DNA of 64,000 nt from Escherichia coli (lineage in GTDB: Bacteria; Pseudomonadota; Gammaproteobacteria; Enterobacterales; Enterobacteriaceae). The position numbers were made by a program, and so were the translations under genes. Below the pieces are notes generated by a model. It made no database searches. It was not told the origin of the DNA and was given only the letters and a program-made list of their open reading frames with translations. Of this stretch, positions 25,655 through 26,740 are shown piece by piece (the first letter of the stretch is position 1; each line of letters opens with the position of its first letter). The stretch lies in NCBI RefSeq assembly GCF_050920415.1, contig NZ_CP169309.1; one strand, given 5' to 3'.

Positions 25655-25750
25655 GTTTGCCTCCGCTGAGAATTAGCCGTTCAGACCTAAACGCTCACCC
25701 TGATAGCTGCCGTCCTGCACCTGCTTCCACCAGCTTTCATTAGCCAGATA

Positions 25751-26740
25751 TCACTGCACTGTTTTACGCATTCCACTTTCAAAGGTTTCCTGCGGCAGCC
25801 AGCCAAGTTCACGGGCAATTTTCGAAGCATCAATGGCATAGCGCAGGTCATGCCCCGGACGGTCAGCGACAAAAGTGATCAGATCACGATAGTGCGCCAC
25901 ACCGTGCGGTTTATTCGGGGCCAGTTCTTCCAGCAGCTCGCAAATGGTTTCCACAACCTCGAGATTCTTACGCTCGTTGTGACCACCAATATTATAGGTT
26001 TCACCGACTTTCCCGGTGGTCACCACGCAATACAGCGCGCGGGCATGATCTTCAACATATAACCAGTCACGGATTTGCTGCCCATTGCCATATACCGGCA
26101 GCGGTTTACCCGCCAGCGCGTTGAGGATCATCAGCGGGATCAGTTTTTCCGGAAAGTGGTAAGGACCGTAGTTATTAGAGCAGTTGGTGATTAACGTCGG
26201 CAGGCCGTAGGTCCGCAGCCAGGCGCGCACCAGATGGTCGCTGCTTGCTTTTGAAGCAGAATAAGGGCTGCTCGGCGAATACGGCGTGGTTTCGGTGAAG
26301 AAATCATCTGTGGAATGCAGGTCACCGTATACTTCGTCGGTGGAGATATGATGAAAACGGAACGCCGATTTTTTGTCTTCTGCCAGCGCATTCCAGTAAG
26401 CCCGCGCCGCTTCAAGCAGTGTATAAGTCCCGACAATGTTGGTTTCGATAAACGCTGCCGGGCCGTCAATAGAACGGTCAACATGGCTTTCAGCTGCCAG
26501 ATGCATGACGCAGTCTGGCTGATGTTCTGTGAAAACACGCGCCAGTTCTGCCCGATCGCAGATATCAACTTTCTCAAAGGCAAAGCGATCGCTTTGCGCA
26601 ACCGGTGCCAGCGACATCAGGTTTCCGGCGTAGGTCAGCTTATCGACCACCACCACCGCATCGTTCGTCTCGTTGATGATATAACGCACCAGCGCCGAGC
26701 CAATAAACCCGGCACCGCCTGTTATCAGAATCTTTCTCAT
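25751..26740 (-). CDS. rffG: dTDP-glucose 4,6-dehydratase 2 RffG (RmlB2), apparently C-terminally truncated by a premature TGA (329 aa instead of the expected 355)
   Basis: [27 protein letters not shown]... ends ...[13 protein letters not shown]; the 26 codons after the stop read in frame [28 protein letters not shown], the conserved RmlB tail. ATG overlaps wecC stop by 1 nt. Confidence 0.9.

Follow-up and report, generated by a model that had tools for sequence, protein, structure and literature searches.

A premature stop codon in rffG of Escherichia coli and its probable masking by a second dTDP-glucose 4,6-dehydratase

rffG encodes the dTDP-glucose 4,6-dehydratase of the ECA pathway in E. 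coli. In the 64,000 nucleotide stretch of E. coli DNA analyzed here (contig NZ_CP169309.1, termed the window), the rffG open reading frame is interrupted by a TGA codon, and beyond this codon the same frame continues with the remainder of a normal RffG sequence. The locus thus raises the questions of whether the stop codon is genuine, whether the shortened protein is still a working enzyme and, if it is not, how its loss is tolerated.

The rffG nonsense allele

rffG is on the minus strand of the window in the wec/rff (ECA) operon, which extends from wecA to wecG at positions 18566–31346 (minus strand, from the annotation of the near-identical genome MFDS1022581) and in which all genes but rffG are intact. 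Upstream is wecC (26740–28002, minus strand), whose stop codon overlaps the rffG start. Downstream is rffH (24773–25654, minus strand), which is annotated as an rfbA-type glucose-1-phosphate thymidylyltransferase and was placed by its open reading frame and by comparison with the near-identical genome. The rffG start was taken to be the ATG at position 26740, after the PGAP annotation of that genome. From this ATG the full rffG frame runs to its native TAA (26740–25673, minus strand) and has a predicted chain length of 355 aa. The truncated coding sequence (25751–26740, minus strand) was defined by its open reading frame and translation and consists of 329 codons that end in ...MRKTVQ, followed by the premature in-frame TGA at positions 25753–25751.

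The mutated base is at position 25751, which is T on the plus strand and A on the coding strand, and the codon affected is that of Trp330 (TGG). The plus strand at this site reads gccagatatcactgcac, with tca at positions 25751–25753, and the minus strand reads CAG TGA TAT; the base following the stop codon is U (UGA-U). Translation of positions 26749–25670 on the minus strand shows codon 330 to be the sole internal stop in rffG. The product has 329 aa compared with 355 and lacks the 26 residues from W330 to G355. The orphaned 3′ end of the gene (25673–25750, minus strand) has 25 sense codons and the native TAA. It is now untranslated, but its sequence is identical to that of the full length rffG of MFDS1022581. 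A preliminary description of this DNA had reported a premature TGA in place of a conserved Trp codon in rffG with loss of the last 26 of 355 residues; the sequence and its translation bear out the coordinates, the codon and the residue count.

Across the operon the window differs from MFDS1022581 at position 25751 alone. wecA, wzzE, wecB, wecC, rffH, rffC, rffA, wzxE, rffT, wzyE and wecG all match their MFDS1022581 copies, none of which is flagged as a pseudogene there, and the earlier statement that the remaining wec genes are full length is therefore correct.

A megablast search of 5,426 complete E. coli genomes with the 1,091-bp rffG query gave MFDS1022581 and N96 as the best matches, each with 99.9% identity. 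All remaining matches have 98.8% identity or less. The sole mismatch of MFDS1022581 and N96 over the length of the query is at position 25751, where they have C on the plus strand and the window has T. Both genomes accordingly have TGG at codon 330, which agrees with the reading of the preliminary description that TGG had become TGA. TGG is also found at this codon in EC42405. Thus the closest relatives have a sense codon where the window has a stop, and the 25 codons downstream are those of the orthologue.

Alignment of the entire 64-kb window with MFDS1022581 shows differences at position 25751, in a 12-bp repeat in hemX and in the rRNA operon only. As position 25751 is nearly the sole difference between the two, the stop codon is derived and very recent. 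From these alignments the ancestral codon 330 is TGG, and the stop codon arose from it by a G-to-A transition on the coding strand.

The hemX difference, at positions 11271–11282, consists of two extra copies of a 6-bp ACCTGC tandem unit in the window and is a polymorphism in length that keeps the reading frame. Three substitutions and six single-base indels relative to MFDS1022581 fall in the rRNA operon and its leader (52687–57478). They are probably products of collapse or consensus of rRNA copies in a draft assembly and not true divergence. Elsewhere in the window, a gene for a 675 aa hypothetical protein (WP_001361096.1 in MFDS1022581) is situated at positions 3085–5112 (plus strand) between lptM and cyaY. 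Its GC content of 0.47–0.49 is slightly below that of its neighbors, and its translated sequence had no match in NCBIfam, PADLOC or Pfam. This gene is not known from the K-12 gene order. An apparently intact PemK/MazF-family toxin gene is present at positions 38803–39252 (plus strand) between rep and ppiC; no annotated antitoxin adjoins it in MFDS1022581, and it had no PADLOC match. At this location K-12 presumably has the yifN pseudogene.

The stop allele was found in none of the 5,426 complete E. coli genomes. The query in this case was a 55-nt sequence centered on the mutated base, for which a 28-nt exact word can seed only if T is present at that base. As this query has no match in the complete genome collection, the allele is rare, and a common polymorphism is ruled out. 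With the parental full length allele on 99 contigs and the stop allele on 8–12, carriers of the stop make up a minority sub-lineage.

A mismatch of one base to the closest genome is also what a sequencing or assembly error would produce in a strain that truly has TGG. However, the difference is a substitution and not a homopolymer indel, and the exact 329 aa product recurs in independent records. It is deposited in GenBank both as EGE62346.1 (E. coli STEC_7v) and as OTB62989.1, and the 8–12 contigs that carry it are of differing lengths. Among these contigs are Logan assemblies of the separate runs SRR058106 and SRR17144073, the DNA of which is identical to the window over 4–7 kb. Because the exact protein recurs in several entries, on several contigs and in two runs, a one-off base-calling error is very unlikely, and error in reads or assembly was rejected as the source of the stop codon. 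The carrier assemblies and runs could be re-sequencings of strain 7V. This strain is of serotype O2:H25, carries stx2g and was obtained from the faeces of healthy cattle (AEXD00000000; PMC3491183). No mention of the rffG stop allele was found in the literature searched.

The explanation favored here, to which we assign as a whole a probability of about 0.75, is that a genuine and recent G-to-A nonsense mutation is carried by strain 7V and its relatives, a sub-lineage of Shiga-toxin-producing O2:H25 E. coli from cattle, in which it leaves a crippled RffG fragment, is covered by RfbB and is nearly silent.

Protein sequence retained and lost

The truncated RffG scores 762.6 bits against the RffG equivalog model NF007582 (cutoff 698), which it matches at model positions 1–329 of 355. 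Against TIGR01181 it scores 521.6 bits (cutoff 365.1) over model positions 1–309 of 321. The NF007582 score, together with the position of the gene between its wec/rff neighbors wecC and rffH, confirms that the gene is the rffG of the ECA cluster, as had been proposed. The fragment does not have the full length coverage of the family, which includes a C-terminal WYxxNxxWW helix. It does retain the GGAGFIG NAD-binding motif (residues 8–14) and the catalytic residues T134-D135-E136 and Y160-S-A-S-K164, which are invariant in the alignment.

The lost part opens with W330-Y-L-A-N-E-S-W-W, and the WYxxNxxWW motif thus begins at the stop codon. The motif is conserved in the proteins of E. coli (1BXK), Salmonella (1G1A), Pyrococcus horikoshii (2HUN) and Streptococcus suis (1KEP) and in 8DU1. 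The Trp at position 330 is invariant in these five solved dTDP-glucose 4,6-dehydratase structures with alignments shown, and the earlier claim that a conserved Trp was replaced holds good. In the solved structures, bacterial and archaeal alike, W330, Y331, N334 and W337 are conserved, and all ten solved homologues reach through the region that is missing from the truncated RffG. E. coli K-12 RffG (PDB 1BXK, 355 aa) is encoded by the same gene at the same operon position, has the same NAD-binding and TDE/YxxxK motifs and is about 97% identical over residues 1–329. It continues through the lost region, so that a normal RffG does not end at the position of the stop. The window allele differs from it in stopping at codon 330, without the last 26 residues.

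An AlphaFold model, which is of medium confidence (pLDDT 67), was built on a shallow 9-sequence alignment and is used here for secondary structure only, displays helices at residues 320–333 and 335–343. The stop codon cuts the first of these helices and removes the second. Nothing specific on the role of the RffG C-terminal helix was found in the literature searched.

These features bear on the possibility that the 329 aa RffG is still a working dehydratase, in which case the last 26 residues would be dispensable and no compensation would be needed. All three of the NAD-binding, TDE and YxxxK motifs are kept, the score exceeds the RffG cutoff, and the extreme C-terminal residues (346–355) are poorly conserved between RffG and RfbB, all of which would be expected of an active fragment. 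However, the chain is cut inside a predicted helix and the next helix is absent, TIGR01181 runs 12 positions beyond the stop, and the four conserved residues and the region spanned by all solved homologues are gone. An active fragment is considered unlikely. As the cut lies in the penultimate predicted helix and WYxxNxxWW is lost, the 329 aa RffG is most likely crippled, i.e. unstable or poorly active, to judge from the sequence and the model.

Readthrough, polarity and probable cover by RfbB

UGA is the leakiest stop codon, and reading by the near-cognate Trp-tRNA(Trp) would insert the ancestral residue. In K-12 reporters Trp-tRNA(Trp) reads UGA at about 2–4% (PMC10570021), and a U at the +4 position lowers UGA readthrough (PMC5289835). 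A few ribosomes may then read the rffG UGA with Trp-tRNA(Trp) and give exactly the wild-type RffG, at a level that the UGA-U context would keep low.

Readthrough of this type differs from a recoded UGA, by programmed readthrough or by selenocysteine insertion, which would make full length RffG the main product. The relatives argue against recoding, as all of them have TGG at this position and neither TGA nor a Cys codon. The UGA-U context is one of low readthrough. For the RNA surrounding the stop codon and 3′ of it, folding is no better than in shuffled sequences (z = 0.21), and no SECIS-like element is indicated. With no structure above the shuffled controls and with Trp (TGG) in the homologues, selenocysteine or structured recoding was ruled out. 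trpT, the sole tRNA-Trp gene, is itself in the window at positions 52087–52162 (minus strand); it has the anticodon CCA and the D-stem GAGC and is identical to that of MFDS1022581. A UGA suppressor tRNA is thereby also ruled out. Recoding of any kind is exceedingly improbable.

The newly untranslated gap that precedes rffH is 96 nt in length and has 33 G and 18 C residues. A GGAGG ribosome-binding site that belongs to rffH itself is found at approximately 25660–25664, six bases before the rffH ATG, in the context ...GCGGAGGCAAACATG. Since the gap is short and G-rich, which is unfavorable for Rho loading, and rffH has its own Shine-Dalgarno sequence, Rho-dependent polarity on rffH was judged unlikely. 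On these sequence features rffH expression is unlikely to suffer from the rffG stop.

Related to tolerance of the rffG defect, the preliminary description had suggested that an O-antigen rmlB paralogue could compensate, and this suggestion finds indirect support. Strain 7V is of serotype O2:H25, and the nearest complete genome, MFDS1022581, has an O2/O50 cluster between galF and gnd with the gene order galF-rfbB-rfbD-rfbA-fdtA-...-rfbC-wzy-gnd, which fits the published O2 serotype of 7V. This cluster also has genes for a sugar 3,4-ketoisomerase and an aminotransferase, as well as O2/O50 wzx and wzy. The RfbB encoded by its first gene after galF (WP_000699449.1) is intact, with a chain length of 361 aa and 74% identity to RffG. 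An intact rfbB in the stop-carrying genome is inferred from the O2 serotype and from this nearest complete genome; a look-up of the RfbB protein of the lineage gave only assemblies other than the stop-carrying ones. Expression of the O2 antigen needs dTDP-4-keto-6-deoxyglucose, and 7V must accordingly have a functional dehydratase.

In the same cluster of MFDS1022581, the gene for the fdtC-like acyltransferase is broken into two fragments annotated as pseudogenes, and an ISAs1 transposase gene interrupted by a stop codon is found between the glycosyltransferase genes and gnd (28529–28975 and 36389–37525 of the cluster sequence L009 cover the acyltransferase and ISAs1).

RfbB/RmlB (e.g. Salmonella RmlB, 1G1A, and WP_000699449.1) catalyzes the same reaction as RffG, is like it a member of the extended-SDR family and is described in the literature as functionally interchangeable with it. 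It differs in being encoded at the galF-gnd locus, where it serves dTDP-rhamnose and dTDP-Fuc3NAc synthesis, and, compared with the window RffG, in being full length (361 aa) and in having an 8-residue insertion after residue 146. A passage in PMC7439462, which cites Marolda & Valvano 1995, states that RfbB can supply ECA synthesis without RffG. In S. Typhimurium, single deletions of rffG or rfbB give LPS profiles, morphology and results in stress tests like those of the wild type; the rffG rfbB double mutant loses O-antigen and displays round cells, bile sensitivity and envelope defects, and it can be complemented with either gene (PMC12136496). The Salmonella rffG deletion is comparable to the present case in that RffG function is lost, rfbB is kept and the outcome is wild-type-like. 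It is however a laboratory deletion in another species, whereas the allele described here is a natural nonsense allele that leaves a 329 aa fragment.

By analogy, the RfbB (RmlB) of the O2 cluster would still make dTDP-4-keto-6-deoxy-D-glucose for the Fuc4NAc residue of ECA, and the rffG defect is probably masked by this second enzyme copy in the O-antigen cluster. As RfbB is known to substitute for RffG, the stop would be phenotypically silent or nearly so and may be tolerated under relaxed selection.

Selection, other rffG alleles and significance

Loss of RffG could instead be adaptive, e.g. by directing dTDP-sugar flux to the rhamnose and Fuc3NAc of the O2 antigen, by lowering ECA or by allowing escape from ECA-dependent phage. 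No unique-sequence SNP besides the stop separates the 64 kb from MFDS1022581, and other defective rffG alleles (frameshifts and a 305 aa form) are present in public assemblies, as might be expected if loss were favored. However, a single event in one small sub-lineage is involved, the parental allele is about ten times commoner, and no complete genome shares the stop. Redundancy with RfbB moreover predicts little phenotype on which selection could act. Adaptive loss is thus quite improbable, and with just one SNP in unique sequence over 64 kb, drift is indistinguishable from selection.

A further proposal joins selection with readthrough: the stop may have been selected in the bovine O2:H25 stx2g lineage, where Trp leak-through would leave a trickle of wild-type RffG, i.e. 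a down-tuned dehydratase, with supply passed to RfbB. This proposal is highly speculative and is given very little credence. If it is true, the down-tuned RffG would alter the balance of ECA and O-antigen or susceptibility to phage.

The other defective alleles belong to the same 90% identity cluster as the window RffG, and each may be an artefact. P0002 has a frameshift after RPG296 that gives 350 aa, on a contig of 4.97 Mb. P0015 has a frameshift after QET319, also with 350 aa, on three contigs. P0013 is a K-12-like allele of 305 aa that ends in ...AIDA and is found on eight contigs. These are likewise C-terminal disruptions of rffG, but the lesions differ from that of the window and are on different allele backgrounds. 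The sequences of these disrupted public alleles agree with weak constraint on rffG where rfbB is present.

Returning to the recent nonsense mutation and its probable cover by RfbB, the rffG allele of the window is, from its sequence, best filed as a strain-specific nonsense allele of the pseudogene type in a redundant gene. The defect is genuine but unremarkable and of small biological significance. The GenBank entry EGE62346.1 carries the name of a normal dTDP-glucose 4,6-dehydratase but in fact represents an allele truncated at the C-terminus. For work on ECA and O-antigen it matters that an rfbB knock-out in 7V or its relatives may have the properties of a strain mutated in both rfbB and rffG. 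The allele provides a clean natural example of decay in a redundant surface polysaccharide gene whose role can be taken over by a paralogue, rfbB.
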